Shown: positions 6,526 through 28,303 of the stretch, piece after piece
Layout: every line of letters begins with the position of its first letter
Numbering within the stretch: position 1 is the stretch's first letter
NCBI RefSeq assembly: GCF_004010195.1
Contig: NC_057754.1
Span: 2,841,089-2,881,664 of the forward strand
Source: Chiloscyllium plagiosum
Lineage: Eukaryota
Reading direction: 5' to 3'
DNA: 40,576 nucleotides
The notes under the pieces: generated by a model
The model's input: only the letters and a program-made list of their open reading frames with translations
Database searches by the model: none
Told to the model about the DNA's origin: nothing
Position numbers and translations under genes: made by a program

Positions 6526-6918
6526 CGCATACATGAACATCAACTAGCCACGAAACGACACGACCAGCTATCCTTAGTAGCCACACACGCAACATGAATT
6601 CGACTGGGACAACACTACTATCATAGGGCAAGCCAGACAGAGAACAGCCAGGGAATTCCTACAGGCATGGCATTCATCCACAAACTCCATCAACAAACAC
6701 ATCGACCTCGACCCAATATACCAACCACTACAGCGGACAACCGGAAGCGGCAGGGACAGACCACTATAAAACATCAAAGAAGCGCTTCACAGGAGGCTCC
6801 CAAGCACTGATGATGTCGCCTAGCCAGGGGACGAAACGTTTGCAACAAAAACTTCCAGCTCGGCGAACAGAACCACAGCAACGATCACCCGAGCTACAAA
6901 TCTTCGCACAAACTTTGA
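6526..6918 (+). mobile_element. Penelope-like element 3' fragment (GIY-YIG C-terminal region plus pseudo-LTR with hammerhead motif)
   Basis: Reads RIHEHQLATKRHDQLSLVATH / EFDWDNTTIIGQARQRTAREFLQAWHSSTNSINKHIDLDPIYQPL (frameshifted), followed by CTGATGA...GAAACGTT; 12-bp flanking duplication. Confidence 0.85.
6804..6843 (+). ncRNA. Minimal hammerhead ribozyme motif (Penelope-associated)
   Basis: GCA-CUGAUGA-U-GUCGCCU(AGCC)AGGGGAC-GAAAC-GUU-UGC: stem I GCA/UGC, stem II with one mismatch, intact core. Confidence 0.75.
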
Positions 6919-7361
6919 ATGCTTTCCTTTATTGGTCAGTGCATTGAGACTAGGAATTGGGAGGTCATGTTGTGGCTGTGCAGGACATTGTTAGGCCACC
7001 TTTGGAATACTGCATTCAGTTCTGGTCTCCCTGCTATAGGAAAGATATTGTTAAACTTGAAAAGATTTGCAAGGATGTTGCCGGCATTGGAGGGAATGAG
7101 CTACAGGGAGAGGCTGATCAGGCTGGGACTATTTTCCCTGGAGCGTCGGAGGCTGAGGGGTGATTTTATAGAGGTTTATAAAATCATGAGGGGGTTGGAT
7201 AGGGTGAATAGTCACGGTCTTTTTTCCCCTGGGGTAGGCGAGTCTAAGACTAGAGCGCATAGGTTTGGGGTGAGAGGGGCAACATTTAAAAGGGACCTAA
7301 GGGGCAACTTTTTCACGCAGAGGATGGCACGTGTATGGAATGAGCTGCCAGAGGAAGTGGT

Positions 7362-10090
7362 ATTTGGAAAGTTGCTTTACCCAAAACACTACTCGGATAT
7401 TTCTCCCACCTTTCCTCCTCCTCTAACCAAAAGAAACAGTTCTGTGCACCGGATTGGTAAGGTGAGTGGTTTCTTCACTTTTTTTTAGATTTTCATTTGT
7501 CCAGTTGGGAATTTAGAATGTGGGAATGGTGGTTAGGGCAGATCCTCCTACAGAATGTGGGAGGTAAGGGTCACCACTAGCGTCCCTGCTGACTACATCT
7601 GCGGGAAGTGCACCCAACTCCAGCTCCTCGAAAACCGCGCCAGGGAACTGGAGCTGGAGCTGGATGAACTTTGGATCATTCGGGAGGCGGAGGGGGTTAC
7701 TGAGAGGAGTTACAGGGAGGGAGTCACTCCTCAGGTACAAGAAGAAGGTTACTGTCAGGGGACGGAAAGGGAACCGGCAGGCAGTGCAGGGATCCCCTGT
7801 GGCCATTCCCCTCAACAACAAGCATACCGTTTTGGATACCTGTTGGAGGTATGACTTACCAGGGGTAGGCAATGGGGCACAGGGCTCTGGCACAGAGTCT
7901 GTCCTTATCGCTCAGAAGGGAAAGGGGAAGAGGAGCAGAGCATTAGTCACTGGGGACTCCATAATTAGGGGGACACATAGGAGGTTCGGTGGGAACGTGC
8001 CAGGGTTCATGATGTCTCTGATCGTGTTTTCAGAGGCTTGGGGGTGGGGGGGGGCAACAGCCCCAAGTCGTGGTCCACATTGGCATCAGCAACGAAGGTT
8101 GGAAGAAATATAGGGATTTAAGGCAGAAATTCAGGGAGCTAGGGCGGGAGCTTAGAGCTAGAACAAACAGAGTTGTTAACTCTGGTTTGTTGCCCGTGCC
8201 GCGTACTAGCGAGGCGAGGAATAGGGAGAGAGGGGTTGAACATGTGGCTACAGGGATGGTGCGGGAGGGAGGGTTTTGGATTCCTGGACAGTTGGGACTC
8301 TTTCTGGGGTAGATGTGACCTCTACAAACAGGATGGTCTTCACCTGAATCAGAGGGGGGAGATATTTGCTCGTGCTCTTTGGGTGACTTAAAACTAATTT
8401 AGCAGGGGGATGGGAACCCAAACTGTGGTTTGAGTATACTGGAGGTTGAGATTAGTGACGTCAGAAATAAGGTTTCAAGGTTGCAAGAAGGCACCAGCAA
8501 GCAAAACATTGGTTTGAAGCGCGTCTACTTCAATGCCAGGAGCATCCGGAATAAAGTGGGTGAACTTGCAGCATGGGGTTGGTACCTGGGACTTCGATGT
8601 TTTGGCCATTTCAGAGACATGGGTAGATCAGGGACAGGAATGGTTGTTGCAGGTTCTGGGATTTAGATGTTAATAACAGAGAAGATGGTAAAAGAGGGGG
8701 TGGTGTGGCATTGTTAGTCAAGGTCAGTATTACAGTTGCAGAAAGGATGTTTGAGGACTTGTCTACTGAGGTAATATGGACTGAGATTAGAAACAGGAAA
8801 GGAGGTTACCCTGTTAGGAGTTTTCTATCGGCCTCTGAATAGTTCCAGAGATGTAGAGGACAGGATAGCAAAGATGATCCTCAAATAGGAACGAGAGTGA
8901 CAAGGTAGTTGTTATGGAGGATTTTAACATTCCAAATATTGTCTGGATTTACTTTAGTTGAAGTGCTTTAGATGGGTCAGTTTTTAACAATGTATGCAGG
9001 AGGGTTTCCTGACACAGTATATAGACAGGCCAATATGGGGCAAGGCCACATTAGATTTGGTACTGGGTAATGAACCTGGCCAGTGTTAGATTTGGAGGTA
9101 GGTGAGCACTTTGGTGATAGCGACCACACTTTGGTTATGTCTACTTTAGCGATGGAAAAGGATAGGTATACAATGCAGGGCAAGAGTTATAGCTAAGGCA
9201 ATTATAAGGCGATTAGGCAAGATTTAGGATGCATAGGATGGGGAAGGAAACTGCAGGGGATGGGCACAATTGAAGTGTGGAGCCTGTTCAAGGAGCAGCT
9301 ACTGTGGGTCCTTGATAAGTATGTACCCGTAAGGCAGGGAGGAAGTTGTCGTGCACTGGAGCCATGGTTTAACTCAGGAAGTTGAATCCCTTGTCAAGTG
9401 GAAGAAGAAGGCTTATATTAGGATGAGATGTGAAGGCTTGAGAGTTACAAGTTAGCCAGGAAAGATCTAGAGAGAGAGCCGTGAAGAGCCAGGAGGGGAC
9501 GTGAGAAGTCGTTGGTGGATAGGATCAAGGAAAACCATAAGGCTTTCTATAACTATATCAGGAATTAAAGAATGATTAGAGTAAGATTAGAGCCAATCAA
9601 GGATAGTAGTGGGAAGTTGTGCATGGAGTCAGAGGAGATAGGGGAAGTGCTAAATGAATACTTTTCGTCAGTATTTACACTAGAAAAAGACAATGTGGTC
9701 GAGGAGAATACTGAGATACAGGCTACTAGACGCGATGGGTTTGAGGTTCACAAGGATGAGGTGTTAGCAATTCCAGAAAGTGTAAAAAATAGATAAGTCC
9801 CCTGGCCTGGATGGGATTTATCCTAGGATTCTCTGGGAAACCAGGGAGGAGATTGCCGAGCACGTCGATTCTCCTGTTCCCTGGATGCTGCCTGACCTGC
9901 TGCGCTTTTCCAGCAACACATTTCCAGCTCTTTATCCTAGGATTCTCTGGGAAACCAGGGAGGAGATTGCCGAGCCTTTGGCTTTGATCATTATGTCGTC
10001 ATTGTCTACAGGAATCGTGCCAGAAGACTGGAGGATAGCAACTGTCGTTCCCTTGTTCAAGACGGGGCGGAGAGACAACCCTGGAATAGT
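7362..10090 (+). mobile_element. CR1 LINE 5' two-thirds: 5'UTR, ORF1 (zinc finger/leucine zipper and SGNH esterase), ORF2 APE endonuclease to RT start; degenerate
   Basis: ORF1 motifs DYICGKCTQLQLLENRARELELELDEL, LVTGDSIIRG and LYKQDGLHLNQRG; ORF2 motifs YFNARSIRNKVGEL and PEDWRIATVVPLFK; many frameshifts and stops. Confidence 0.92.
9862..9930 (+). mobile_element. 69-bp Penelope-like pLTR fragment inserted in CR1, flanked by a 45-bp direct duplication
   Basis: acgtcgattctcctgttccctggatgctgcctgacctgctgcgcttttccagcaacacattt matches 10915-10980; 9817-9861 is identical to 9931-9975. Confidence 0.85.
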
Positions 10091-10335
10091 GAGGGTAAGA
10101 TGGGTTACAGATTGGTTTCACAGGCTGGTGCAACATCGAGGGCCAAAGGGCCTGTGCTGCGCTGTAATGTTCTATGTTCAATGGTGCAGGCTGGTACAAT
10201 TACAATATTTAAAAGGCATAGGAAGGGGCTAGAGGGATATGGGCCAAGTGCTGGCAAATGGGACTAGATTAGGATAGGATATCTGGTCGGCATGGACTGA
10301 AGAGTCTGTTTTCATGCTGTATGGCTCTGTGACAC
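10090..10335 (+). mobile_element. CR1 3' tail fragments (two different tails)
   Basis: gggccaaagggcctgtgctgcgctgtaatgttctatgttc followed by gggatatgggccaagtgctggcaaatgggactag... Confidence 0.7.
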
Positions 10336-10894
10336 TTTAAGTGCTTTTACACACAACCGAATGAAACATGGCTGTTCTTTTTAAAATCCTCTTTTACATA
10401 ATGTGTCTGTTTGTTAAAATGTATATCCAGACGTGCACACAACTGAATGTTTACTTTTCCTATCATCAGTGGTATTATGCCCCACCAGTAAAAGCGGCCC
10501 ATGAATTCTAATTGATTAATGTACGTGCAATGAATCCACCAAAGGGGAAGGAGTGATAGGGAGAAGGGAGGAATCTGAACCAAACTAGAGTCAGAGGGGA
10601 ATATGCCTGTTCTAGAAAACATTCATTTTGGGGCTCACCTGACAGACGACACGGAAGTTGCCTTATGAAATGGGAATGACAGCTCTTTGGTATCAAAGCA
10701 GCATTTGACCGAGTGGGGCATCAAGAAGCCCAAGCAACACTCGATTCAATGGGATGGGGGAGTAAACTCTTCGCTGGTTGGAGTCATACACAGGAAGAGG
10801 TCTGTAGTTGTTCAGTCACCTTACCCCCAAGGCATCTTCAGAGGAGTTCCTTGGGGATGTGTCCATGGCCCAACTTTCTTTACCTGCTTCATCA

Positions 10895-11019
10895 AGAAGA
10901 AGGGCTAATGCCCGAAAGGTCGATTCTCCTGTTCCCTAGATGCTGCCTGACCTGCTGCGCTTTTCCAGCAACACATTTCCATCTCTGATCTCCAGCATCT
11001 GCAGACCTCACTTTCTCCT
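10895..11019 (+). mobile_element. Penelope-like pLTR fragment with truncated/mutated hammerhead
   Basis: gaagaagggctaatgcccgaaaggtcgattctcc...; same family as 18195, 23378 and 24897; flanked by catcaa. Confidence 0.75.
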
Positions 11020-11049
11020 CATCAATCAAGTGTTAATGATGGTAAATAT

Positions 11050-11440
11050 CTACATACGGGGCCTTGTATGAAATCCTAGTATCTTCTTTAATCACAAGCA
11101 AGGTCCCAGAGGAATGAAGAATAGCCAGTGTTGTTCCTTGGTTTAAGAAGGTCAACAGGGAAATTACAGGTCGGTGAGACTTAAGTCAGTGATAGGAAAA
11201 TAATCAGAGAAGGTCTTTAGGGACAGGATTCATTCACATTTGGAAAAATACAGACTTATTCATGATAGGCAGCATGGTTTTGTGTAAGGGGAGGTTGTGT
11301 CTCACAAACTCGATTGAGTGTTTTGAGAAAGTGACAAAGATGAGGGTAGAGCAGTAGATGTTGTCTAGGTGCATTTTAGCAAGACCTTTCACAAGGTTCC
11401 TCGTGATAGGCTGATAGAGCAAGTGATACGATATATGGAA
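11050..11440 (+). mobile_element. Degenerate CR1 RT fragment
   Basis: cagcatggttttgtg (QHGFV), gcagtagatgttgtc...ttttagcaagacctttcacaaggttcc (DFSKAFDKVP-like). Confidence 0.8.
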
Positions 11441-12060
11441 CAAACCTAGATTGCTGTTAAGTCTTTAATCACATAAAATGGGGTTGCAGGTTTTGATTCA
11501 TTAATATGTAAATCCCAGAACTTCTTTCAAGTCACATGCCCGCGACAACTTAAGGTTTTATAAAAAAAAGGTGACATCTCAGCTCAGACAATGTATTAAA
11601 GGTGTGAGGTTAGAGTCTGTCTACATTCCAAGCTTGAGTCAGACTGGTTCTATTTCCAAAGTAGGAATTTATAAAATGGACTCCCTGCAGGTTGTGTGCT
11701 TTTTGAGCAATATAGAATATATCTGCAAAATATAATTCTGCAAACGTAAATTCACCCCAGAGATTTATATGTGTGTGCATGCATGCGAGGGAGGGGGAGG
11801 GGGAGAGAGAGAGAGACTGAGTGCGTGCTTTGTGTGTGTGCATGTACATGTGTGTGTGTCTCAGTGAAATGTGTACGCATGAGTGTGACAGAGTATAAGG
11901 TGTGTGAGGTGTATATGTGTGTATGTCTGAGAGAGAACATGTGTATGAGAGAGGATCCTGCCCCACTAACTACCTGATGAAGGAGCAGTGCTCTGAAAAC
12001 TGGTGCTTCCAAACTAACCTGTTGGACTATAACCTGGTGTTGTGTGATTTTTAACTTGGT
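11440..12060. mobile_element. Probable Penelope-like element fragment with internal microsatellite and a pLTR with degenerate hammerhead at 11971-12005
   Basis: cctgatgaaggagcagtgctctgaaaactggtg...aacctgttggactataacctggtgttgtgtg matches 19700-19820 and 26795-26880. Assignment of 11440-11960 to the same element is inferred. Confidence 0.6.
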
Positions 12061-12129
12061 CATCGAGGGCAGAGAACAGAAATGGAAGGAGAAAATTACT
12101 GCAGATACTGGAATCTGAAAACTCCACCA

Positions 12130-12412
12130 CATCCAGCTTCCACCACATCCTCTGGCAGCTCATTCCATACATGTACCACCCTCTGTGTGAAGATGTTGCC
12201 CCTTAGATCTCTTTTATATCTTTCCCCTCTCACCCTAAACCTATGCCCTCCAGTTCTGGGCTCCCCGACCCCAGGGAAAAGACTTTGCCTATTTATCCTA
12301 TCCATGCCCCCTCATAATTTTGTAAACCCCTATAAGGTCACCCCTCAGCCTCCGACGCTCCAGGGAAAACAGCCCCATAAATCTTTTCTGAACCCTTTCA
12401 AGTTTCACATCA
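12130..12412 (-). mobile_element. CR1/HER1 ORF2 C-terminal fragment
   Basis: ORF 12096-12305: RTGGHRFRVRGERYKRDLRGNIFTQRVVHVWNELPEDVV. Confidence 0.9.
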
Positions 12413-13202
12413 TCAGCACTGACATGGGTGGGTATATAAATAGGAAGAGTTTAAGAGGGATCAGGGCCTAAATCTGACAAATGGGACTAGGTCAGATTGG
12501 GATGTCTGCTCAGGGGGTAAAATGTGGACCGGAGGATCTGTTTCCATACTGTATGATTCCATGACTATAAACCTGAGGTGAGGCATTTTGCAAGGTTTAA
12601 TGCAGGAGGGGAGTTTACAGTAACTGGCAGACCCTTTAGAAGCATTAACAGACAGAGGAATCTAGGAGTATAAGTCCACAGTTTCATGAGAGTGGCAACA
12701 CAAGTGGATAAGTTTGTCAAGAAGGCATATGGCATACTTGCCTCCATTGGTCGAGACAGACAGTATAAGAATTGGAAATTCATGTTACAGCAGCATAGAA
12801 ACTGAGGAGGGCCACATTTGAAATACTGCACACAGTTCCGATCACCATACTGGCAGGAGGTTGTGGAGGTTTTAGAGATGTACAGAAAAGATTTACCAGG
12901 GTGTTGCCTAGTTTGGAGGGTTAGCTATGAGGAAAGATTGGACGAAGCCAATCTGCTTTCACTTGAACGTCAGAGGCCGAGAGGTGACCTGATAGAGGCT
13001 TGCAAAGTTGTGAGGGGATGCTCAGAGTCTTTTTCCCAGGGTAGAAGTAGGTGGTGTAGTGTAAGGTTAAAAGGAGGAATGCTTAAAAGAGACTAGGATT
13101 TTACACAGTGGGTGGTAAGGGCCTGGTATGCATTGCTAGAGGAAGTGGTAGAAGCAGATACAACAGCAAGATTAAAGGGGCAACTTGACAGATACATGAA
13201 TA

Positions 13203-13640
13203 GAAATTGCTGGAAAAGTTCAGCAGGTCTGGCAGTATCTTTTTTATTTATTTTTGGCAGAATCCCTATAGTGTGGAAACTGGCCCTTCAGCCCAACAAG
13301 ACCACACCGACCCTCCGGGGAGTAACCCACTTCGACCCATTCCCCTACCCTACTATTGAATATTTACCCTTGACTAATGCACCTAACCTACAGGTCCTTG
13401 AACACTATGGGGCAATTTAGCACAGCCAATTCACCCTAACCTGTACACCTTTGGATTGTGGGAGGAAACCCCACACAGACACTGGGAGAATGTGCAAACT
13501 CTACACAGACAGTCGCTCAAGGGTGGAATTGAACCCGGGTCCCTAGCACTGTGAGGTAGCAGTGCTAACCACTGGGCCACCATGCCAGGGAGATGAATTT
13601 AAGTTAACATTTCAGGTCGAGTGACCTTTTCTCAGAATTG
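13203..13640 (-). mobile_element. Penelope-like pLTR fragment split by a HE1 SINE; degenerate hammerhead at 13603-13637
   Basis: gaaattgctggaaaagttcagcaggtctggcagtatct on the left. On the right the minus strand reads ttctgagaaaaggtcactcgacctgaaatgttaac (stem GGTC/GACC, mutated core). Confidence 0.55.
13259..13586 (-). mobile_element. HE1-type tRNA-derived V-SINE
   Basis: A box tggcccagtggttagc, B box ggttcaattcc, V-domain gtgtagagtttgcacattctcc, CR1-like tail gggccagtttccacactat. Confidence 0.9.
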
Positions 13641-13767
13641 GCAGGGAAGAACGGGATATAGATTCATAGAGGCTAAAAGTCTTCAGTTTACAAAGATGTC
13701 ATGTGTTGGCACAGGCTTGTTGGGTCTGTAGTCCTGTGTTGTACTGTTCTTTGTTCTTTGCTGACAT

Positions 13768-13778
13768 TATATATATAT

Positions 13779-13821
<43 letters not shown>

Positions 13822-13830
13822 TAATTATAT
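13768..13830. repeat. (TA)n/(CA)n microsatellite
   Basis: Directly visible. Confidence 0.95.
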
Positions 13831-13898
13831 ATGCAAGGTTTGTAGCTCAGGTTGAAGTTTAGGGTGTTGGTTTGCTCGCTGAGCTGTAGGTTTGATAT

Positions 13899-13938
13899 CC
13901 AGTCGTTTCATTACCTGGCTAGGTAACATCATCAGTGG
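13899..13938 (-). ncRNA. Hammerhead motif with cleavage triplet mutated (GAC)
   Basis: CCA-CUGAUGA-U-GUUACCU(AGCC)AGGUAAU-GAAAC-GAC-UGG. Confidence 0.6.
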
Positions 13939-14097
13939 CGACCTCCAAGTGAAGCGAAGCTGTTGTCTCCTGCTTTCTATTTATATCTTTCTCCTAGATG
14001 GGGTTCCTGGGGTTCACCACAATCCACAGGAACCCCATCCAGGAGAAAGATATAAATAGAAAGCAGGAGACAACAGCTTCGCTTCACTTGGAGGTCG

Positions 14098-14137
14098 CCA
14101 CTGATGATGTTACCTAGCCAGGTAATGAAACGTCTGG
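14098..14137 (+). ncRNA. Minimal hammerhead ribozyme motif, intact
   Basis: CCA-CUGAUGA-U-GUUACCU(AGCC)AGGUAAU-GAAAC-GUC-UGG. Confidence 0.82.
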
Positions 14138-14472
14138 ATATCAAACCTACAGCTCAGCGAGCAAACCTACACCCAAAACCTCAACCTGAGCTACAAACCT
14201 TCACAAACCTTGCATACATCAAATTTGTCACGAATACTTCCTTTCGGACTGACCGCAAACCTATAGCCCCAACCCCTCTAATCTTTCTCCTTCATCCCCG
14301 ACATTGAGAAATCCTCATAATGCCATAAACAAACACATAGATCTAGATGCCATCTGTCAACCCCTCAGAAAACGAATAGGAAATGACATCACCACAAACC
14401 CCAGGAACCCCATCCAGGAGAAAGATATAAATAGAAAGCAGGAGACAACAGCTTCGCTTCACTTGGAGGTCG

Positions 14473-14512
14473 CCACTGATGATGTTACCTAGCCAGGCAA
14501 TGAAACATCTGG
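14473..14512 (+). ncRNA. Hammerhead motif, mutated (AUC, stem II mismatch)
   Basis: CCA-CUGAUGA-U-GUUACCU(AGCC)AGGCAAU-GAAAC-AUC-UGG. Confidence 0.55.
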
Positions 14513-14560
14513 ATATCAAACCTACAGCTCAGCGAGCAAACCTACACCCCATAATTATAT

Positions 14561-15434
14561 GTATCATTGCAATTTTTGGGAAGTTGGACACTAAAATAGA
14601 GGCAGAGGGATTTTGGTTAGTCCCTGTGAAGGTTTTATTTTGAAGGTTAGGAAGGCATTGTAGAACAATGACCTAAATACATAATTACTAAGAAGGCATG
14701 TGACTTCAGCCAACTGCTGAGCAGATCTCTGTGGCATTGATGGACAACATGGTTACATTGTTGGGTTTAGTACAGGCAAGGGTAAACACATGAAAGCAAA
14801 TAATTTAGTTTTGATTTCAGAACGGAAGGTTTGAAGCTAGTTCTTAAGGCCCGAGGGTTTGGAATAGACTGGTTCTCCTCCGAGATGGCAAACAGAGTGC
14901 TGTTCACTCCACACTCACCTTAGCAGAAGCAGTGTGTGCGGAGTTTTCATCCTGGGAGAGTCTTTGCAGGAGCTTTTAAGTCATTAGAGCTGAGAAGGTT
15001 TGAGGCCTCAGAAATGTAAAAGGTTTACATCAGCAGAGTTGGAAGGGAATTGCAAAATTGTCTCCACGGTCAAGGGAAAAGAAACTCACAGGAGTCGGTT
15101 AAGGAGGAACTTAGAGTTCAGAGAGAAGGATAATTTCTCTGGACCTGCATCGCTGAGGTACATAGTATTGAGAAGCAGATGAAAATTTGTTTTGATGTTA
15201 ATATTAAAATCTTTCTAAATTGCCCTCTATATCTGTATTGCTTGTTTGTTTTCCCTTTTGTTTATAAAATAAACTTCTGTTCTGTTGTTTAAGAACAGCG
15301 GAAGCCTCATGTGAAAATGTTTTGGTAACTAGCCAACAAGAAACCAATCTTAGTAATTAAAAATATGATCTATTCAGCCAGGTTTAATTCTGGAATCTGA
15401 TTTGTCTCATGGTGCCATAAACTGCGATTATAAC
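14561..15434 (+). mobile_element. Possible solo LTR (Gypsy-like)
   Basis: Non-coding block with a T-rich stretch, AATAAA at ~15268 and a terminal ...ttataaCA directly abutting a LINE fragment. No clear TSD or 5' TG was found. Confidence 0.3.
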
Positions 15435-15820
15435 AATGCCATCTACAAAATGTACTTCAGTAACACACTAAGACTTGCTTAGACAGTACTTTCTAAACCC
15501 GCGACCTCTACTGATAGATTGACAAGAACAGCAGACACATGGTAACACCAGCACCTGCAAGTCTGCCTCCAAACCAAACGTACCATCCTGATATGAAACT
15601 CTATTGTTTGTTGAATTCCATCCACGTTTTTGTTCCTTCATCACTCTGTCCTCCTCTCCTTCCTGATTCTCTGCTGAATTTGATCAAAATCCTGAAACTC
15701 CCACAAACGATCAGGAAGGCACCTCACAGGCACTGTCCCAAGGGCAAACTGGAGTGGACAACAAATGCCACCCTTGCCAATGATGCCCACTTCCTGACAA
15801 CGAATTTAAAAATTCCCTTT
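15435..15820 (+). mobile_element. Ancient CR1/L2-group LINE 3' UTR fragment
   Basis: ccatctacaaaatgtacttcagtaac...aggaaggcacctcac...acaaatgccacccttgccaatgatgcccac; related to 2400-2690, 18650-18975 and 39580-39720. Confidence 0.6.
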
Positions 15821-16127
15821 TAGGTGACTGATGGACTCCATTGAGCATTGGAAAGGATATGGCGTTCAACTCTAGATTCAATCAATTCCCAGTCGACAAA
15901 TCAACTGTAAGGAATAGGTGTAAATACCCAAATGGTATTGCAATTTAGCTTGACTAATGTTCTCACGTTAACATTTGTGACTTCAGGCACAGTGACATTC
16001 TTTCACTAACTTGTCATAGGAGACCATGGCACTGGATATCACGCAGAGGAATCAGAATCCATATTAACACGACACTGAGTAAAATTTTGATTTCCTGATA
16101 AACAAATTATCCACTCTAGGCCACACT

Positions 16128-16523
16128 TATAGAGTCATAGAGATGTACAGCATGGAAACAGAGGCTGAGGGGTGACCTTATAGAGGTTTACAAAATTATG
16201 AGGGGCATGGATAGGGTAAATGGGCAAAGTCTTTTCCCTGGGGTCGGGGAGTCCAGAACTAAAGGGCATGGGTTTAGGGTGAGAGGGGAAAGATATAAAA
16301 GAGACCTAAGCGGTAACGTTTTCACGTAGAGGGTGGTACGTGTATGGAATGAGCTGCCAGAGGAAGTGGTGGAGGTTGGTAAATTGCCATATTTAAGAGG
16401 CATCTAGATGGGTATATGAATAGAAAGGGTTTGGGCCGGGTGCTGGCAGGTGGGACTAGACTGGGTTGGGATATCTGGTCGGCATGGACAGGTTGGACGG
16501 AATCTGTACATCTCTATGACTAT
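16128..16523. mobile_element. CR1/HER1 3' fragment (plus) with a short inverted second tail at its 5' side
   Basis: atagagtcatagagatgtacagcatggaaacag (minus tail) is joined to aggctgaggggtgacc...ctgtacatctctatgacta (plus). Confidence 0.88.
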
Positions 16524-16926: not shown

Positions 16927-16940
16927 GTAACCATGGAAAC
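16927..16940. promoter_or_regulatory. RFX X-box-like site
   Basis: GTAACCATGGAAAC matches the palindromic RFX consensus GTNRCCATGGNAAC, within a repeat-free island. Confidence 0.35.
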
Positions 16941-17914: not shown

Positions 17915-18060
17915 TGGAGAAAGTGAGCACTGCAGGTGCTGGAGAGTCAGAGTCGAAAAGTGTGGTGCTGGGAGAGCACACCAGGTCAGGCAGCATCCGT
18001 GGAGCAGGAGAGTCAATGTTTCAGGCATAAGCCCTTCATCATTCCTGTTGAAGGGTTTGT
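17915..18060 (-). mobile_element. Penelope-like pLTR fragment with collapsed inverted junction
   Basis: caggtcaggcagcatcc...gtttcaggcataagcccttcatca|ttcctgttgaaggg; cccctac(t/c)ctggagaaa occurs at ~17906 and ~18061. Confidence 0.7.
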
Positions 18061-18194
18061 CCCCTACCCTGGAGAAAAAATCCTTGGCTATTTACCCTAT
18101 CCAGGCCCCTCATGATTTTATAAACTTTTATAAGGTCACCCCTCAGCCTCTGACACTTCAGGGAAAACAGCCCCAGCCTATTCAGCCTATCCCA

Positions 18195-18316
18195 ATGAAG
18201 GGCTTTTGCCCGAAACGTCGATTTTCCTGCTCGTCGGATGCTGCCTGACCTGCTGAGCTTTCCCAGCACCGCTCTGATCTAAACTCTGGTTTCCAGCATC
18301 TGCAGCCCTCACTTCT
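18195..18316 (+). mobile_element. Penelope-like pLTR fragment, hammerhead truncated at its 5' end
   Basis: atgaagggcttttgcccgaaacgtcgattttcc...; gcctattcagcct duplicated at ~18176 and ~18317. Confidence 0.78.
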
Positions 18317-18649: not shown

Positions 18650-18975
18650 GGTATCAGCAGTGTGTACTGTCTGCAAGGTGCGCTACAGTAACTCAGCAAG
18701 GCTCTTTTGACCTTTCAAACCCATGGCTTCTCCTACTGAGAAGGGCAAGAGCAGTAGATGTATGGGACCACCATCCCCTCTAAGGCTACTCACTTGACTT
18801 GGAACTGTATTGGCTGTTATGTCACTGTCACTGGATCAAATTTCTGGAACTCCCTCCCTGACAGCAGTTGTGAGTGTACCTATACCACACAGACCGCAAG
18901 AAGGCAGCTTAACAACACCTTCTAAAGGGCAATTAGGATTGAGAAATAAACGCTGACTCAGCTAGAGTTGGACAC
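18650..18975 (+). mobile_element. Ancient CR1/L2-group LINE 3' fragment
   Basis: ctggatcaaatttctggaactccctccctgacagc...aagaaggcagcttaacaacaccttctaaagggcaattagg. Confidence 0.6.
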
Positions 18976-19699
18976 ATAGAACACGGAACAGCACAGTACA
19001 GTACAGGCCCTTTGAACCTCAATGCTGTGCCAACCTTTTGTCCTACTCTAAGATCAAACTAACCTACGTAACCTTCATGTTACTGTCATCCATGTGCCTA
19101 TCCAAGAGTCATTTCAATGTCCCTAATGTCTCTGACTCTACTACCACCACTGTCAGTGCATTCCACACACCCACCACTCTCTGTAAAGAACCAACCTCTG
19201 ACATTTCCCCTAAACCTTCCTCCAATCACCTTAAAATTATGCCCCTTTGTGATAACCCTTTCTGCTCTGGGAAAATTTCTCTGACTATTCACTCTATTTA
19301 TGCCTCTCCTCATCTTTTACACCCCTATCAAGTTATCTCTCATTCGTCTCTGTTCCAATAAGAAAGCCCTAGCTCCTTCAACCTCTCTTCATAAGACATG
19401 CCCTCCAGTCCAGGCAGCATCCTGATAAATCTCCCCTGTACCCTCTAATAGCATCTACATCCTTCCTATAATGAGGTGACCAGAACTGAACACAACATTC
19501 CAAGTGTGATATAACCAGGACTCTATAGAACTGCACCACAACCTTGCGGCTCTTAAACCCAACCCCCTGCTAATGAAAGCCAACACACAGTAGGCCTTCT
19601 TAACAACCCTACCAACTTGGGTGGCAACTTTGAGGGATCTGTGGACTTGGACCCCAAGATCCTCTGTTCCTCCACACTGCCAAGACTCCTGCCTTTAAC

Positions 19700-19822
19700 T
19701 TATCTGATGAAGGAGCAGCGCTTTGAAAGCTAGTGCCTCCAAATAAACCTGTTGGACTATAACCTGGTGTTGTGTGAGTTTTAACTTCATCCACCCCAGT
19801 CCAACACCAGCATCTCCAATTT
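19700..19822 (+). mobile_element. Penelope-like pLTR fragment inserted in CR1; TSD TGCCTTTAAC
   Basis: tgcctttaac at ~19690 and ~19824; same family as 11971 and 26795. Confidence 0.8.
19701..19735 (+). ncRNA. Minimal hammerhead motif (GAAAG-CUA variant)
   Basis: UAU-CUGAUGA-A-GGAGC(AGC)GCUUU-GAAAG-CUA-GUG. Confidence 0.65.
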
Positions 19823-22800
19823 GTGCCTTTAACCTTGAATTCTGCATTCAAATTCAACCTTCCAACGTGAATCACTTCACACTTTTCCACGTTGAACTCC
19901 ATCGGTCTCTTTTCAGCCCAGTTCTGCATCTTGTCATTGTCCCGTTGCAACCTACGACAGCCCTCCACACTATCCACAACTCCACCAACCTTCATGTCAT
20001 TGGCAAACTTACTAACCCACTCTTCCACTTCCTCATTCAAGTCATTTATAAAAATCACAAAGAGCAGAGGTCCCAGAACCGATCCCTGGAACACCACTGG
20101 TCACTGAGCTCCAGGCTGACTACTTTCCATCTACTAGCACCTTCTGTCTTCTATCGGCCAGCCAATTCTGAATCCAGACAGGCCAAGTTCTCTCATCCTT
20201 ACTTCCTGAATGAGCTACCATGGGGAACCTTATCAAATGCCTTGCTAAAATCCATGTACAACACATCCACTACTCTACCTTCATCAATATGTTTTGTCAC
20301 ATCCTCAAAGCCCCTCACAAAGCCATGCTGACTATCTCTAATCAAGCTATGATTTTCCAAGTAATCATAAATCCTATCTCTCAGAATCCTCTTCAATAAT
20401 TTGCCCACCGCTGACATAAGACTGATTGGTCTGCAATTCCCAAGATTATCCCTATTCCCTTTCTTGAACAAGGGAATAATATTTGCCACTTTCCAATCAT
20501 CTGGCACTACTCCACTGGACAGTGAGGACACAAAGATCATCATTAAAGGTGCGGCAATCTCTTCCCTCACCTCCTGTAGTGCCTTGGATATATCCCGTCT
20601 GACCCAGGAGACTTATCTATCCATATGTTTTTCAAAAATTTCAGCACATCTCCCTTCCTTACATCAATCTGTTCGAGCATATCAGCCTGTTTCACACTGT
20701 CCTCACAAACGACAAGGTCCATCTGCTCTGAATACTGAAGCAAGATATTCATTAAGGATCTCCCCTACCTCCTCCAACTCTAGGCACAAGTTCCTGATAC
20801 CTACAAGTAGATGTCCTTGATAGGCCCTACCCTCACTCTGGCTATCCTCTTGTTCCTCACATAAGTGTAGAACACCTTATGGTTTTCCTTAATCCTACCT
20901 GCTAAACCTTTTCCATGCCCCCTTCTGGCTCTCCAAATCCATTCTTCAGTTCCATCCTGGCTACCTTGTTACCCTCTAGATCCCTGTCTGATCCTTGCCT
21001 CCTCAACCCTAAGTAAGCTTCCTTCTTCCTCTTGACTAGATGTTTCATATTCCTTGCCACCCAAGGTTCCTTCACCCTACCATCCCTTCCTTGCCTCAGT
21101 GGGACAAACCGATCCAGCACTCGCAGCAAGTGCTCCCTAAACAACCTCCTCATTTCTGTTGTGCATTTTCCTGAGAACATCTGTTTTCAATTTAGGTGCC
21201 CCAATTCCTGCCTAATAACATTGTAAATCCCCCTCCCCCCCCAATTAAATACTTTCCCATACCGTCTGTTCCTATCCTTCTCCATGACTGTAGGGAAGGT
21301 CAGGGAGTTGTGATAACTATCACTGAAATGCTCTCCCACCTGGCCTGGTTCGTATCCAAGTACCAAATCCAATATGGCCTCCCCTCTAGTTGGCCTATCT
21401 ACATATTGTGTCAGGAATCCTTCCTGGAAACACCTGATAAAACACGCCATTCAAATTATTTGAACTAAGGAAGCTCTGGTCAATATTAGGAAAGTTAAAG
21501 TCACTCATAACAACAATCCTGTTACTTATGCACCTTTCCAAAATCCGCCTCCCAATCTGCTCCTCTGTGTGTCTCTGTTGCTAGTGGGGGGGTCTGTAGA
21601 AAACTCCCCAATAAAGTGACTGCTCCTTTCCTGTGTCTGACTCCCACCCACACTGACTCTGCAGACAAACCCTCTGCAATGACCTCTCTTTCTGCAGCTA
21701 TGATACTATTCGTGATTAGCAATGCCACTTCCCCACCTCTTTTACCTCCCCGCCCCATTCCTTTTGAAAAATCTAAACCCTGGAACATCCAACAACAATT
21801 CCTGCCTCTGTGGTATCCAAGTCTAAGTAATGGCCACAACATCATAGTTCCAAGTACTGAATACATCTCATGAATACATTTACAAAAATGGTTCCTAATT
21901 GTAGACATCATTAATACCAGCTACCATGTCCAATTTGTCATCTAGACAAGTGAGAGAACTGAGATATTCAACACCAGCTTTATGTAACCAATATCTAATA
22001 CACAGATGATCTGAATTTGTGCAAGGGCAAAACTCTTTGCTGTAGATTTACTTGAATAATCCCACTCATAGCATACACCAAAGATGTGCACGAGAACCCT
22101 TACAAAACCAAGTGACTGAAAGAGCTGAAATGACATGGCCACTGCAATTAAGCCTCATCTGTTATTATTGTTTGGAAACTTAGTTCCAATTAGGAAGAAA
22201 ATTGGATTTTAGTTTTCAGCTTTGTGAAAGTCTGAATTTTTTTCTTTTAGAAAGTGAGAAGGTCATTTTAAACAGTGAGCTAAATACAGCAAGATATCAT
22301 GTGATTTTAGCTAAAAGACTGGTAACTCCCCCCCACCCCGCGAGATAACTGCATATGCTAGGGTTTTTTTTTTCTGTTTTGATTTTTACAATCCAGACAG
22401 ATCGAAAGAGAGAGGGAGAGTGACAGGCCCAGACAGAGGTTCATTCAGATAGAAAGGTGTGATAACAGCAGAGGTGCAGTCCTGGGTTGCTTCGATCTAA
22501 ACTTCAGAAACAGAAGGCTATGAAGCAGTCACTCTGTCCTTTGCATCCTTGCTAGTTCTTTATTAGAGTTGAGTATTTCTCAGGCTTTACCTTTTGGTTT
22601 CAAATCTGTGTTCAGTTGCCTTTTAAGCAACCATCCAATCTCTGCCTCTGGTAGTGCAACATTCCATTTCTTAATTGTTCTGTGTTAAATCACCTTCTAA
22701 CCTCCACTTCCAGTCCTGGCTCTCAGTCTCTGTTCCTTTGTTACAAACTCACCAACCATTTAAGTAACCTTCTCCGCATGGAGACCGTCAAAATCCTTCA

Positions 22801-22904
22801 TCAAGATACTTATTACATTTTCAATCCTTCCTATTCCAGCCCCAGTTATAACGAACTCCTCATTCCTGAAATTCTTATGAAATCTTTTGTCCATGGTTCC
22901 GTAA

Positions 22905-23175
22905 ACTCATCGAGTCATACAGCACAGGAACAGACCCTTCGGTCCAACTCGTCCATGCTGACCAATTTTCCCAGACTAAATTAGTCCCGGTGTTTGGCCC
23001 ATATCTCTCCAAATCTCTCCTATTCATGTATCTGTCCAAACTTCTTTTAAATGTTGTAATAGTATCTGCATTTGTCTCTTCCTGTAGCAATGTACGAACC
23101 ACCCTCTTTGTGGAAAGGTTGTTTCTCAAGTCCCTTTTAAAACTTTCTCCTCCAACTTAAAAACATGCCTCCTAA
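22905..23175 (-). mobile_element. CR1 3' fragment
   Basis: gagtcatacagcacaggaacagacccttcgg...; ORF contains ITTFKRSLDRYMNR. Confidence 0.8.
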
Positions 23176-23267
23176 AGGTATGGCCAGAATTGTGTGCAGT
23201 TATCCAGTTGTGGTCTAACCACACGGCTTCACTAATTCAACGTTGTTTCCCAGTCAATGACTGTCTT

Positions 23268-23378
23268 TAGATTAGATTACTTTACAGTGTGGAAACAGGC
23301 CCTTCGGCCCAACAAGTCCACACCGACCCACCGAAGCGCAACCCACCCATACCCCTACATTTACCCCTTACCTAACAC
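23268..23378 (-). mobile_element. HE1 SINE 3' fragment
   Basis: tagattagattac...gtgtggaaacaggcccttcggcccaacaagtccacaccg is nearly identical to 30800-30910. Confidence 0.85.
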
Positions 23379-23472
23379 CTGATGAAGGGCTTTTGCCCGA
23401 AACGTCGATTTTCCTGCTCCTTGGATGCAGCCTGAACTGCTGTGCTCTTCCAGCACCACTCTAATCTAGACT
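23378..23472 (+). mobile_element. Penelope-like pLTR fragment starting at an intact hammerhead core (23379-23406)
   Basis: C-CUGAUGA-A-GGGC(UUUU)GCCC-GAAAC-GUC-G; the 5' arm of stem I is largely replaced by SINE sequence. Confidence 0.78.
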
Positions 23473-24043
23473 TTCTTCTTTACCTGCTCACCTGCCATTA
23501 AAGTGACCTCAGTTTTATTGAATGGTGAGGAACAGATTCAAAGGGCTGAATGGCCTGCTCCTGTCATGTGTTTACTATCGATATTGATGAGTTGGATGAA
23601 GGGACCAACTATATTGCAGCCAAATATACTGACAACTGAGAGGTAGGTGGTCAGGTAAGTAGTGAGGAGGGCAATTAGATTAAATGGGCAAAAGATTTTG
23701 ACAGAGTGAAATGTAGGAAAATGTGTGACGTTATCCACATTGGTTCAGAAAATAGAAATATCAGATCTGATTGTACGGAGACAGCTTACAGAACATTGTG
23801 GCACAGGTGTGGATCTGGGTTGTTATTTTTCCTACAGGATGTAGACATCACTGACTAACATTTATTGCCCACTCCTTGTTGGAGAGAGTTGGTGGTGAGC
23901 TGCCTCATGACCTGCTGCGTTCCTTGGGATATATCTACACCTCAGCGCTGATAATTGAGAGTAGACTGATGGTCAATAACAGGCAGGGTTAGATTTGAAC
24001 AGCATATCACATACCTGGGCTAGTTTCCACAATGTGGGATAGA

Positions 24044-24368
24044 TCATAGAATCCCTACAGTGTGGAAACAGGCCCTTCGGCCCAATAAGTCCACACCCAC
24101 CTTCAGAGTAACCCACCCAGACCCATTCCCCTACCCTACTATTGTCCATTTACCCCTGACTAATGCACCTAACCTACACATCCCTGAACACTATGGACAA
24201 TTTAGCATGGCCAATCCACCCTAATCTGCACATCTTTGGATTGTGGGAGGAAAACGGAGCACCCAGAGGAAACCCCGCATAGACAGAACATCTAAAATCC
24301 ACACACACAGTGGCTTGAATCGAGGCTGGGTCCCTGGCGCTGGGAGGCAGCAGTGCTATCCACTGCCA
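24044..24368 (-). mobile_element. HE1-type V-SINE
   Basis: Colinear with other HE1 copies. Confidence 0.85.
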
Positions 24369-24896
24369 GTGTTATAGCTGTGCTGGAATGGTTCTGGAGC
24401 ACTAGTCTTCAGTGCTATTGCTGAAATGTTGTCAGAGCCTACAGCCTTTGCAATATCATCTTCAATCGTTTCTTGATATCACGTGGAGTGAATCAAATCG
24501 GTTGAAGTTTGGCATGTGTGTTGCTGGAGATCTCAGGAGATTAAGCTGGATCATCCACTGAATACCTCCGGCTGAAGATGGACGCATGTAATTGTCTTTT
24601 GTCGAGACGCGTTGGTTTCCTGCATTGTTGAGGATTGGGGTATATGTGGGGCCTACGCCTGATGTCAGAGGTGTAATTGTTCAGCACCATTTGTGACTGG
24701 ACGTGCAGAACAACACAGCTTAGGTCAGGTCAGTTGACAATGGGATTGTTTAGCCTTCCCTATCCCATATTGCGGTTTGGCAAGCAAGAAGTTTTGTACT
24801 GTAGCTTCACCAGGTTGACCCCTCACTTTTAGTTACTCGTGGTGCTACTGACGTGCTGTAATGCACTCTTCTTTGAAATAGGGTTGATCTCCTGAC

Positions 24897-24987
24897 TGAA
24901 AATGTGTTGCTGGAAAAGCGCAGCAGGTCAGGCAGCATCCAAGGAGCAGGAGAATCGACGTTTCGGGCATGAGCCCATCTTCAGGAA
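24897..24987 (-). mobile_element. Penelope-like pLTR fragment with intact hammerhead (24954-24987); TSD TGATCTCCTG
   Basis: Minus: AUUC-CUGAAGA-U-GGGC(UCAU)GCCC-GAAAC-GUC-GAU; tgatctcctg at 24885 and 24988. Confidence 0.82.
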
Positions 24988-25469
24988 TGATCTCCTGGCT
25001 GGATGGTAATGGTAGAGGGGAGCCATAAGTTGCAGGTTGAGGTTGAACACAATTCAAGAGTGCTTTTGTACATAAATCACTTAACGTTAGAACGCAAATA
25101 CAGCAAGGCATTAGGAAGACAACTAAACCGTTAACCTTTACTGCAAGGGGGATGCAATATAAAGGTGAGGAAGCTTTGCTATAAGCTGTATGTGGCACCA
25201 GAACACTGCAGGTTTGGTCTGATTTCAGCAGGGTTGTACCTGCATTGTATATGACGCAGAGAGGGTTCATGAGGTTGATTCCTGGGATGAAGGGACTGCC
25301 TTACAAATTCAGCCGCATGAGCTCAGAAAAACGAGGGATAATTTTCAATTGAAATTTATAAGCTTCTGAACAGCCATGATAAGGGAGAGAATTACAGCTT
25401 AGTGGTATTATCCTTGGACTGTTAATCCAAAAAAAAAAACACAAGGACCTATAAAATTAAAAGCAGGGC

Positions 25470-26032
25470 CATGGATAGTGTAGAAGAGGCGTTCAGGTAC
25501 ATAATTCTTTGAAGTTTGCATCACATGTAGACAGAGTGGTTAAAACGGCAGTTAGCACATTTGTCTTCATTGCTCAGACCTTTTGAGTATAGGAGTGAAG
25601 ATGTTATGTTGAGGTTGTACACAACGTTAGTAACACTTCTACTGTGTCCAGTTCTGGTCACACTATTATAGGAAGGGTATTGTTCAGCTGGAGAGGGTTC
25701 AGAAAAGATTTACCAAAATGCCGCTGGGTATGGGAGGTTTGAGTTATAAGGAGAGGCCGGATAGACGGACGGTTTTTCACTGGAGAGTAGGAAGGTCGAG
25801 AGGTGACGTTTTGAGATTTATAAAATCATGAGGGGTACAGATAAGGTGAATGGGAGGTGTCTTTTCCCGAAGGGGAGGGATTTCAAAACTACATGGCATA
25901 TTTTTAAGGTGAGATGACAAAGATTTTAAAAAAGACACGAGGGGCAGTGGTTTTCCAGAGGGTGGTCAGTGTGTGGAATGAACTTCCAGAGGAAGTGGTG
26001 GATGCGAGTACAGTTACAGTGTTTAAAAGACA
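25470..26032 (+). mobile_element. CR1 ORF2 C-terminal fragment lying inside a tRNA-derived SINE (head ~25395-25430, tail ~26033-26150)
   Basis: FQRVVSVWNELPEEVVDA; the flanks match the SINE at 39108-39435. Confidence 0.75.
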
Positions 26033-26685
26033 TCTGGCCTACGTGTCACTCCAGACCCACAGCAGTCGGGTTGACTCTCAACTGTCCTGTGGACAATAAA
26101 TGATGGCCTCTGCATAAATGTCCTCACCCTGTCAATGAATCAAATAAAATCACAGGAAGGATGCTGAAATGTTTCTCACTGTGCCACCTCTCCAACACAG
26201 ACAGTTTTATAATGGTTTTACCTTTCAGATAGAACGGAAGTTTCTTCCTTGAGGGTTATGGATCATTGGAATTGCCAATTTAAGAAAGCTGCTCAGGTAC
26301 TGAATAAATTCAAGGCTGAGATGGAGAGATAGGAGTTGAAGGTTGTGGGGATCTAGCAGCAACATGGAGTTAGGCTCGAGATCAGATCAACCATTATCTC
26401 ATTGAGTGGCAGAACATACTCAGAGGCCAAACCTTCCAACATACAGGTCAGACTGTAATGCTTTCCTTGATGGACATCATTAAACCAGATGAGGTTTTAT
26501 GACAATCCAGTAGCTTCAAATTTACCGTCACTGAGATTGTTCTTTGGTTTGAGATTTAACCAAAGTTAAATTTGCCAGCTGCCTTTTAAGCAGGATTTAA
26601 ACCCCTGGTCCTGATCATTGGGATTACTAGTCCAATAGGATACCCACACAGCTGCCATATCTATTTACTTCACCGGTATCCACTT

Positions 26686-26881
26686 TATGATTTAGAGATG
26701 CCAGTGTTGGACTAGGGTGTACAAAGTTAAAAAAGCACACAACACCAGGTTAATAGTCCAACAGGTTTAATTGGAAGCACGAGCTTTCAGAGAACCACCT
26801 AATGAAGGAGCGTCGCTCTGAAAGCTAGTGCTTCCAATTAAACCTGTTGGACTATAACCTGGGGTTGTGAGATTTTTAACT
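26686..26881. mobile_element. Fold-back Penelope-like element (two inverted pLTR fragments); TSD GTATCCACTT
   Basis: ~26725-26790 is the reverse complement of ~26816-26880; hammerhead core mutated (CUAAUGA); TSD at 26676-26685 and 26882-26891. Confidence 0.82.
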
Positions 26882-27239
26882 GTATCCACTTCAGTGAGAG
26901 CTCTGGCTGATTGACTCTCATTAGTGATGGTTTGTACATCAACATTACACGTGATTCACTTAGACCTTGCTGTGCTGCACTCCTTCAAAAATCCCTACCC
27001 TGCTCTGCCCATTCACCGCACAGAAATCCACACCCATATTCTCTGATCTACCCCTGTTCAACATGCACAGCTGAACACAATGAAATCTACTGTCCAGCCA
27101 AACTCACCAGGAAACAAAAAAAAACTTTTAAGCCAATTACATTCAAGCTAAAACTCCCTCTGCTGACACGCCCATCCTCTTTAACTGTGGCGGTGACTGT
27201 GAGGGGCTTAACATCTGCAGTTCATTGGGTTTAGTCGAG

Positions 27240-27530
27240 CATAAAATCCAGGAAAATGTCAGTGCTGAGTATGGGAGGTCACACTCAGAGACCCTGTCAT
27301 CCCAATGAGATGTTAAAACAAAGTGCTATCAGAGGAACAGAGCTTTCTTCTCTCTCAGTTCTGGGCTGTAGTTTATTGCTTAAACATCATCAGAAAAAAA
27401 TCTGGGTCATTGTCAGATTGCTATGGGTGGGAAGTTTGCTATGTACACATTGGCTGCTGCATCGTCCAAATTACAACAGTGACACCAATTCAAAAGCTGT
27501 AAAGCAAACTTTGAGCTGGTGAAAGATAGT
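27240..27530 (+). mobile_element. Degenerate Deu-domain SINE
   Basis: gagatgttaaaac...tctgggtcattgtcagattgct...ttgctatgtacacattggctgctgc...attacaacagtgac...gctgtaaagc. Confidence 0.6.
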
Positions 27531-28195
27531 CGAGTGTTTTTAAAAGAACTTAACTGAATTTGCAAATCATACAGGCCCTACCTGAAACCAGAATAGCCAG
27601 TATAAAGTGAAAGCAAGGTGCAGGGAAACAGTCAGCAATTGTAAACAAATGCCCTTTAGCAGAGGTTATCAGCCATTTTTACCCAGTCCGATCCAAATGT
27701 GACCAGGTCTATAGTACTGTAGTTGACTCAAAGGATCGAGTAAGCTGTCCAATTAAGATGGATAACAAATCCTGATCTTGCCAGAGATGACCACAACCAA
27801 TTGAAAAACTTAGAATAAGGCAATATCAGACAAAGAACAATTGACATAAATCAGAGAGAGATATTAGAGACCAAAAGGTACACCATAACGAGAGTGGGGT
27901 GGTGAGGGACTTCGAGATGGAGCCTTATGTAACTGAAGGCACGACCACCAATGGTGAAACAATGGGAATCCAGGGATGCCTGAAAGCCCAGGATTGGAGC
28001 TCAAAAATCTCAGAGGGGCTGAAGGTTACTAATAGGAGGGTCGAAGGAACGGATGAGCTTACAGATAGAGAGGGATCTCTGAGGTGACCGATTGGGAGGG
28101 ACAGAGGAGATTACTGAGATTAGCGAGTTTTCAGATTTGTAGCTCAGGTTGAGGTTCTGGATGTAGGTTTGCTAGCTGAGCTGGAAAGTTCATTT

Positions 28196-28235
28196 TCAGA
28201 CGTTTCGTCACCATACTAGGTAACATCTTCAGTGA
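28196..28235 (-). ncRNA. Minimal hammerhead ribozyme motif, intact
   Basis: UCA-CUGAAGA-U-GUUACC(UAGUAU)GGUGAC-GAAAC-GUC-UGA. Confidence 0.8.
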
Positions 28236-28263
28236 CTCTCCAGATGAAATTTCGCCTGGGGGC

Positions 28264-28303
28264 TCACTGAAGATGTTACCCAGTATGGTGACGAAACGTC
28301 TGA
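28264..28303 (+). ncRNA. Minimal hammerhead ribozyme motif, intact
   Basis: UCA-CUGAAGA-U-GUUACC(CAGUAU)GGUGAC-GAAAC-GUC-UGA. Confidence 0.8.

Follow-up and report, generated by a model that had tools for sequence, protein, structure and literature searches.

The stretch of DNA analysed here, called the window below, comprises 40,576 nucleotides (nt) of the Chiloscyllium plagiosum genome (contig NC_057754.1) and carries a hammerhead ribozyme motif, or the remnant of one, at fifteen sites. With good confidence we read all fifteen as minimal type I hammerheads in dead 3'-terminal copies of four repeat families, three of which are Penelope-like elements, and we hold that in a live element the motif would likely cut RNA only when paired with a second copy. 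The identity of the motifs and their conservation at the level of lineages can be read from the sequences, and self-cleavage of a dimer at H17 is their predicted function. The kind of element is known; what stands out is its scale in this genome.

Hammerhead motifs in the window and their families

A first-pass annotation, made from the letters of this DNA, had listed seven intact and eight damaged hammerheads. A reading of each site combined with a scan using family templates bore this out, with a motif or remnant at 15 of the 15 sites, within a few bases of where it had been placed. Seven window copies keep both catalytic boxes, U16.1 and an allowed H17, and eight are decayed (Table 1). All seven copies called intact do keep the core. 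The motif at 6807 misses our strict descriptor (CTGANGA, a stem II of at least 3 bp and GAAA-N-N'-T-H) solely because of a G.G in stem II, which is either a mismatch or a one-base bulge. Two others are weaker than the word intact implied: the motif at 23379 has a stem I of just 1 bp, as its copy begins at CTGA, and that at 19704 relies on two G.U pairs in each of stems I and II. The G.G is the state of subfamily A3, seen in 91 of the 100 first-listed of 4,002 genome matches, and a variant with a one-base bulge in stem II is described for Drosophila virilis in PMC4209133. At five of the eight decayed sites (11974, 13606, 14476, 18015 and 26799) the damage includes C-to-T or G-to-A changes, several of these changes falling on the CpG of stem III or on the junction between stem II and GAAA; the remaining three sites show transversions or a broken first core box.

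These motifs are genuine and occur far more often than expected by chance. The strict descriptor matches six times in the window, whereas 200 Markov shuffles gave 0.02 matches on average and never more than 1, and the loose pattern CTGANGA-N4-30-GAAA matches 17 times, against 3.77 +/- 1.92. An arbitrary genome sample of 140 stretches of 10 kb held 87 strict motifs in 1.35 Mb (0.064 per kb) and 1 in the reversed control, so that the density in the window (0.15 per kb) is about 2.3 times that of the sample. Among the checks that had been proposed, a descriptor scan came out positive and a search with the hammerhead models of Rfam did not. None of the 4,227 Rfam models gave a hammerhead match at the window motifs, either at the gathering score or at E <= 10, presumably because helix III is missing. 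The 20 weak Rfam matches that were obtained are microRNA-like hairpins from head-to-head pairs or from TG-rich DNA. The empty Rfam result, even at this permissive level, is the argument for regarding the motifs as chance look-alikes in ordinary repeats, a notion to which we assign practically no probability: set against it are the yield of the shuffles, the family patterns that match the genome thousands of times forward and never when reversed (see below), and a core common to four families with different stems. The shuffle and reversed-pattern controls refute it.

By self-comparison, the window copies sort into four repeat families, A to D. At least three families had been proposed; that there are several Penelope-like families stands, and the remnant at 13606(-) represents a fourth family, D. 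Stem II is GUUACC/GGUGAC in family A, GGGC/GCCC in B, GGAGC/GCUCC in C (the common form of this family in the genome) and GGGUC/GACCC in D. Stem I reads NCA/UGN', AUUC/GAAU, CAC/GUG and AGUU/AACU, respectively, and its third pair, being C-G, U-A or G-C, distinguishes three subfamilies within family A. Stem III is a loopless 4-nt palindrome, ACGU in families A, B and D and AGCU in family C. All families keep the core, the A15.1-U16.1 context and H at position 17, while all three stems differ; the pair closing stem II (10.1-11.1) is G-C in the common form of all four, and one unpaired base follows CUGANGA (after A9) in 90 of 93 strict matches. The comparison of stems in the genome sample agrees with what the first-pass annotation had described, namely stems I, II and III that vary among families around a kept core, an extra base after CUGANGA and a loopless palindromic stem III.

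Covariation was assessed from counts made for each family; a single alignment with a covariance model across families was dropped, as MAFFT set family C one column off register. Families B and D, which have related tails, differ by compensated changes in stem I (first pair C-G versus U-A, third U.U versus G-C). Within family B, a double change from G-C to A-U at pair 2 of stem II is found in 7 of 142 copies, compared to about 0.9 expected from the single frequencies. Overall, 77.6% of the cells in the same 142 copies pair, and 30 cells are changed on both sides; shuffling yields 15 +/- 2.9 such cells, and 30 was attained in 0 of 500 trials. Because one slid control (+1) gives 34 such cells, the support for covariation inside family B is modest. 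Between families, the sharing of nothing except the core amounts to clean natural covariation in support of the published dimer model, above all through the switch from ACGU to AGCU: judged by its sequence, a palindrome that keeps this property through a change speaks for a need of two copies to pair.

Penelope-like frames, copy number and copy ends

As judged from the frames that accompany them, families A, B and C are Penelope-like elements, since their hammerheads lie a few hundred bases downstream of reverse-transcriptase and GIY-YIG frames on the same strand. These frames were located by searches with the genome's own reading-frame fragments. The family B hammerhead is found 349-1322 nt downstream of a reverse-transcriptase fragment at 14 of 25 placeable loci, and this fragment recurs widely in the genome. 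One family B frame (L133:5562-6128) contains a CxxC...IIYCICCSRCGLLYIGETGR motif and runs into the hammerhead; it is related to uncharacterised proteins from orectolobiform sharks (86%, 63% and 59% identical) as well as to metagenomic proteins with RVT_1 and GIY-YIG domains. Two relatives, P0007 and P0012, exceed the cut-off for GIY-YIG, and P0012 exceeds that for RVT_1 too. The family C hammerhead follows a GIY-YIG-type fragment at a distance of 467-1201 nt at 21 of 30 loci; among the other nine, four are masked there, two have the family B motif only and three have nothing. The family C frame (L210) is 39% identical to P0012 over 316 amino acids (E = 1e-72). Family A copies form a series of 5' truncations with a shared 3' end, and the longest of them encode a YVDD reverse transcriptase (RVT_1 at 29.7 bits, cut-off 29.6) and GIY-YIG-type frames, and also carry a VIYKIPCKDCHKHYVGQTGRKL motif. 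The 83 bases upstream of the 14101 motif occur at about 50 places in the genome. Protein relatives of the frames combine RVT_1 with GIY-YIG. Taken together, these results establish, for families A, B and C, the link to Penelope reverse transcriptase and GIY-YIG that had been predicted for the motifs. In the window itself, a Pfam search of 49 frames found no Penelope-like frame, only a reverse transcriptase of the long interspersed element (LINE) type and an EF1G fragment, and across the whole genome the Pfam GIY-YIG model (PF01541) gave one weak match.

In subfamily A1, the reading frame extends into the hammerhead, where a TAG in the stem II loop (loop 2) terminates it (L146:1487-2377(-), L139 and L140; window 14018-14120).

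Searches of the whole 3.56 Gb genome with exact patterns gave 88,166 matches for family B, 17,348 for family C, 4,740 for A1/A2 and 4,002 for A3, and 0 for each reversed control. We estimate that there are about 230,000 strict motifs genome-wide (roughly 180,000 to 280,000). Copies recognised by the tail alone numbered 406 in 1.39 Mb including the window (292 of family B, 75 of C and 39 of A), which scales to a likely total of about one million copies, or roughly 3% of the DNA. The very large genome-wide set of ribozyme-bearing copies that had been inferred from the window is in line with these estimates; the accompanying proposal that the elements are mostly non-autonomous is not, as the copies are instead mostly truncated 3'-terminal pieces of autonomous families. 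By count, the genome would rank among the richest known stores of hammerhead motifs, and for annotation purposes the motifs are best masked as Penelope-like remnants and not presented as ribozyme genes.

Each family has two 3' ends, about 37-40 nt apart (among A1 tails, judged by eye, 13 are long, 14 short and 3 cut off). This fits an Anolis element in which reverse transcription starts at either of two internal sites, making a tail of 30-40 bp optional (Frangieh et al. 2024, PMC11167929). The 5' ends are those of a truncation series in which a strong cluster falls at the hammerhead or shortly upstream of it, and most copies are 70-135 nt long and start near it. Of 116 young family B copies (at least 90% identity), 30 have a 5' limit beyond -38 of the cut site; in a further 41 it falls between -37 and -28, at the motif's 5' edge. 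Another 29 start within the motif, and 16 at the cut site or past it. The main 5' cluster of family C comprises 7 of 30 copies at -37, which is 8 nt upstream of CTGA; most long copies of this family have TATAAAT at -38 from CTGA, and the cluster point comes 30 nt later. The A2 arms in the window start about 19 nt upstream of CTGA, and in A1 TATAAATA is found 50 nt upstream. A head-to-head arrangement is common among the copies: three such pairs are present in the window, one spanning 13832-14212 and two of families C and A2 (Table 1), and inverted 5'-truncated partners are known for Penelope-like elements (PMC8557442). Target duplications of 8-14 bp were recognised by eye at 6 of 30 family B loci. 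The insertion signatures of canonical Penelope-like elements, i.e. truncation, inverted partner, optional tail and duplications, are therefore all present.

The abundance of copies of 70-135 nt that start near the hammerhead would also suit independent non-autonomous elements, similar to retrozymes or short interspersed elements (SINEs), which carry a hammerhead and borrow a reverse transcriptase; along these lines, a 2026 preprint argues that animal retrozymes derived from Penelope-like terminal repeats (10.64898/2026.07.22.740005). We consider such an origin very improbable, given that long frame-bearing copies end in the same sequence with the same two 3' ends, that the 5' ends are a continuous truncation series, and that the motifs lack the loop-loop contacts and the tandem layout of retrozymes. 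Self-comparison of the window revealed no retrozyme-type tandem array of hammerhead units, and the sole array (1-1215) is without a hammerhead motif.

RNA evidence and the proposed cleavage of dimers

RNA data were raw reads from one poly(A) single-cell library with the same species label, mapped to two stretches. On family B copies, coverage is about equal for the two strands and none falls on the unique flanks of these copies, so the reads stem from other copies; they look like passive transcription. A long family C copy, on the other hand, is covered mainly in sense. Here poly(A) tails begin at three neighbouring positions (270, 49 and 342 reads), 29-32 nt beyond the predicted cut site and 12-15 nt after ATTAAA (661 reads; L179:1501-1561, to which 19733-19760 of the window corresponds). 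Of 75 family C copies, 61 retain the signal A[AT]TAAA. Family C RNAs are thus expressed and polyadenylated just past the motif, many of them uncut, and an origin from the element or from host transcripts would both fit.

The order of features in the family C terminal repeat is TATA, putative RNA start, hammerhead and poly(A) signal.

For the live elements we propose that RNA cutting would likely take place only when two copies pair through the 4-base palindrome. Full-length RNA would bear the motif near both of its ends, and two motifs of one RNA, or of two RNAs, could form a double hammerhead, probably aided by the element protein. In cofolding, the double hammerhead is nested and feasible, at -14 to -18 kcal/mol. 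Short copies would arise from reverse transcription that the element's enzyme begins at the tail copy close to the RNA's 5' end, and the cluster of short copies would then represent run-off products that end at the transcription start of the element. The dead copies in the window, mostly 70-240 bases long, would be decaying relics with no function of their own.

A more specific version of this scheme, which we put forward tentatively and regard as rather doubtful, likens the terminal repeat to the R region of a retroviral long terminal repeat. TATA would be followed by an RNA start 30 nt later, by the hammerhead, by A(A/U)UAAA and by poly(A) about 30 nt past the cut; the ribozyme would thereby be present at both ends of every full-length RNA, which could pair into one double hammerhead, and the short copies would be run-off complementary DNAs that the reverse transcriptase begins at the tail copy close to the capped 5' end. 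Were this true, the estimated one million short copies would constitute a genome-wide fossil record of the element's transcription start, and the family C copies, roughly 190,000 in number, would in addition be a source of poly(A) sites on the sense strand of host transcripts.

Several results weigh against our reading and its details. Frames of the genome itself remain below the Pfam cut-off for GIY-YIG (15.4 and 17.9 bits, and no match for family C). RNA depth is unbroken over the predicted cut site of family C (878 versus 948), where read starts or ends were not reported to pile up in this library, whose type is unsuited to such ends; in Anolis, too, RNA-seq ends at the cut site were not found according to PMC11167929. 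Only 3 of the 116 young family B copies start exactly at the cut site, which is no excess over chance. The sole basis for the RNA start is TATA spacing, which is clean in family C, tentative in A and weak in B (a TTTATC box). In stability, the modelled double hammerhead falls short of other dimers (-23 to -33 kcal/mol) and does not surpass two monomers. Subfamily A3 has spread to at least 4,002 copies despite the mismatch or bulge in its stem II. Published work adds that minimal hammerheads have low activity in vitro (PMC4209133), that insertion in vitro proceeds without a need for cleavage (PMC11167929) and that Penelope-like clades without hammerheads spread well (PMC8557442). The modelled picture of an active dimer that is possible but unfavoured agrees with this low activity in vitro (PMC4209133) and with reports of protein-assisted cleavage (PMC11167929).

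The unbroken RNA, the copy starts without an excess at the cut site, the success of A3 with an imperfect stem II, the unfavoured active fold and the independence of insertion in vitro from cleavage all speak for a hammerhead that is kept in active elements without acting by self-cleavage, either as a structured landmark between the RNA start, the poly(A) signal and the reverse-transcription start sites, or as a passenger; PMC8557442 likewise states that hammerheads "may simply parasitize" Penelope-like elements. We nevertheless judge this unlikely. Against it stand an exact catalytic core kept in four families with otherwise unlike flanks, together with the A15.1-U16.1 context and H17, and the compensatory changes in stems I and II. 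Stem III, too, remains palindromic through the change from ACGU to AGCU, a property relevant only to pairing between two copies. Cleavage upon pairing therefore remains our preferred reading, and the young, near-identical subfamilies, along with the expressed and polyadenylated family C RNA, offer a practical system for studying the cutting by minimal hammerheads in vertebrate cells and its purpose.

Related systems and other features of the window

Minimal hammerheads have been described in metazoan Penelope-like elements (Cervera and De la Pena 2014, PMC4209133), and the motifs reported here share with them the CUGANGA/GAAA core and type I topology, the unpaired base between positions 9 and 10.1, the G10.1-C11.1 pair, the combination of a long stem II (4-7 bp) with a short stem I (3-4 bp) and the loopless palindromic 15.2-16.2. 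The genomic setting is also the same: each genome has numerous sequence families that show compensatory changes, motifs on opposite strands form pairs 100-700 bp apart, and most motifs stand singly in truncated copies. Every structural feature listed in the first-pass annotation, as well as the head-to-head pairs, is already published in that paper. The differences concern the number, which by the descriptor of that paper is about 4,000 in coelacanth and about 9,000 in Xenopus versus about 230,000 strict motifs and about one million copies here, and the host, which here is a shark-type genome.

Another close system is PAc, an element of the Poseidon clade from Anolis carolinensis (PMC11167929). 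It shares with the shark families a reverse transcriptase with C-terminal GIY-YIG, a hammerhead overlapping the reading frame at one end, a pair of neighbouring internal start sites for reverse transcription with the optional tail of 30-40 bp, AT-rich targets and the lack of RNA-seq ends at the cut site. The PAc frame starts inside the hammerhead, whereas the A1 frame ends inside it, with its stop codon in loop 2; and PAc is characterised biochemically, whereas the shark families are known here from sequence and RNA reads. Metazoan non-LTR retrozymes (LTR, long terminal repeat; Cervera and De la Pena 2020, PMC7229834) similarly have type I hammerheads in short, non-coding, high-copy repeats, with up to 120,000 copies in axolotl, and probably depend on Penelope-like elements. 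They are tandem repeats of 150-450 bp with canonical hammerheads, loop-loop contacts and circular RNAs, whereas the copies described here carry the minimal motif and are dispersed, either singly or paired head to head. Our literature searches, with Dfam and Repbase outside the comparison, found no paper on hammerheads of shark Penelope-like elements; the paper describing the genome of the whale shark just lists Penelope among repeats (PMC8455134).

The individual copies in the window are listed in Table 1.

Table 1. Hammerhead-bearing repeat copies in the window (window positions)
Feature	Copy	Strand	Hammerhead	State	Details
Family A, subfamily A3 copy	6807..6917	+	6807-6840	whole core	stem I GCA/UGC; stem II GUCGCC/GGGGAC with G.G
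Family B tail fragment	9862..9931	+		no hammerhead	similarity starts 5 nt before predicted cut site
Family B copy	10894..11018	+	10894-10921	decayed	first core box AAGAAGA; stem III AGGU
Family C copy	11967..12060	+	11974-12002	decayed	GAAAACUG
Family D hammerhead	13606..13635	-	13606-13635	decayed	stem II GGUC/GACC; stem III AUGU; interrupted shortly afterwards by SINE-like repeat
Family A1 copy, inverted arm of head-to-head pair	13832..14014	-	13902-13935	decayed	U16.1 changed (GAAACGAC)
Family A1 copy, long tail	14018..14212	+	14101-14134	whole core	intact; copy starts 83 nt upstream of hammerhead, within end of element reading frame
Family A1 copy, short tail	14316..14549	+	14476-14509	decayed	stem III CG -> CA; 5'-truncated about 160 nt upstream of hammerhead
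Family B copy	17916..18042	-	18015-18042	decayed	
Family B copy	18192..18314	+	18192-18219	decayed	first core box broken (CCAATGA)
Family C copy	19696..19819	+	19704-19732	whole core	intact core; AATAAA after motif; inside LINE-type reverse-transcriptase remnant of opposite strand
Family B1 copy starting at CTGA	23378..23472	+	23379-23406	whole core	core intact; 5' strand of stem I missing
Family B2 copy	24896..24990	-	24957-24984	whole core	intact
Family C head-to-head pair	26692..26889				
(-) arm of family C pair	26692-26792	-			ends 12 nt short of cut site
(+) arm of family C pair	26793-26889	+	26799-26827	decayed	G5 -> A
Family A2 head-to-head pair	28133..28340		28199-28232(-), 28267-28300(+)	whole core (both)	intact; each arm starts about 19 nt upstream of CTGA

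The region 13832-14549 is composite: the inverted A1 pair is followed by 103 nt of DNA that is otherwise unique (14213-14315) and then by a third A1 copy. A direct repeat, TAATTATAT(AT)G, borders the region in near-perfect form, and the whole may have arisen as a single complex insertion carrying foreign sequence. In a genome search, no source of the 103-nt insert was found beyond the window and one largely masked contig that matches the same structure.

The LINE-type remnant in the window comprises two reverse-transcriptase frames (19609-20612(-); RVT_1, with PLFKKG...RPISL and FANDMK motifs), which are split by the family C copy at 19696-19819. An open frame at 32703-33053(-) has an elongation factor 1-gamma domain (EF1G, E = 5.6e-24) and could represent either an exon or a processed pseudogene; over its first third it overlaps with a repeat also present at 4984-5117, 10216-10321, 16426-16502 and elsewhere. 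A SINE-like repeat, about 320 bp long and tRNA-like at its head, occurs at 13259-13585, 24047-24365, 30800-31108, 31626-31917 and 38658-38980, and 582 RNA reads have a T-run just before 24056. An abundant dispersed repeat without a hammerhead is found at 5157-5342, 7059-7361, 12133-12377, 16161-16379, 33064-33374 and 40219-40576. The tandem array at 1-1215 has a period of about 33 bp with 82-94% identity between units and is followed by an assembly gap of 500 N (1216-1715). TG/CA-rich low-complexity DNA at 3626-3850 accounts for several spurious, sub-threshold microRNA-like Rfam matches.

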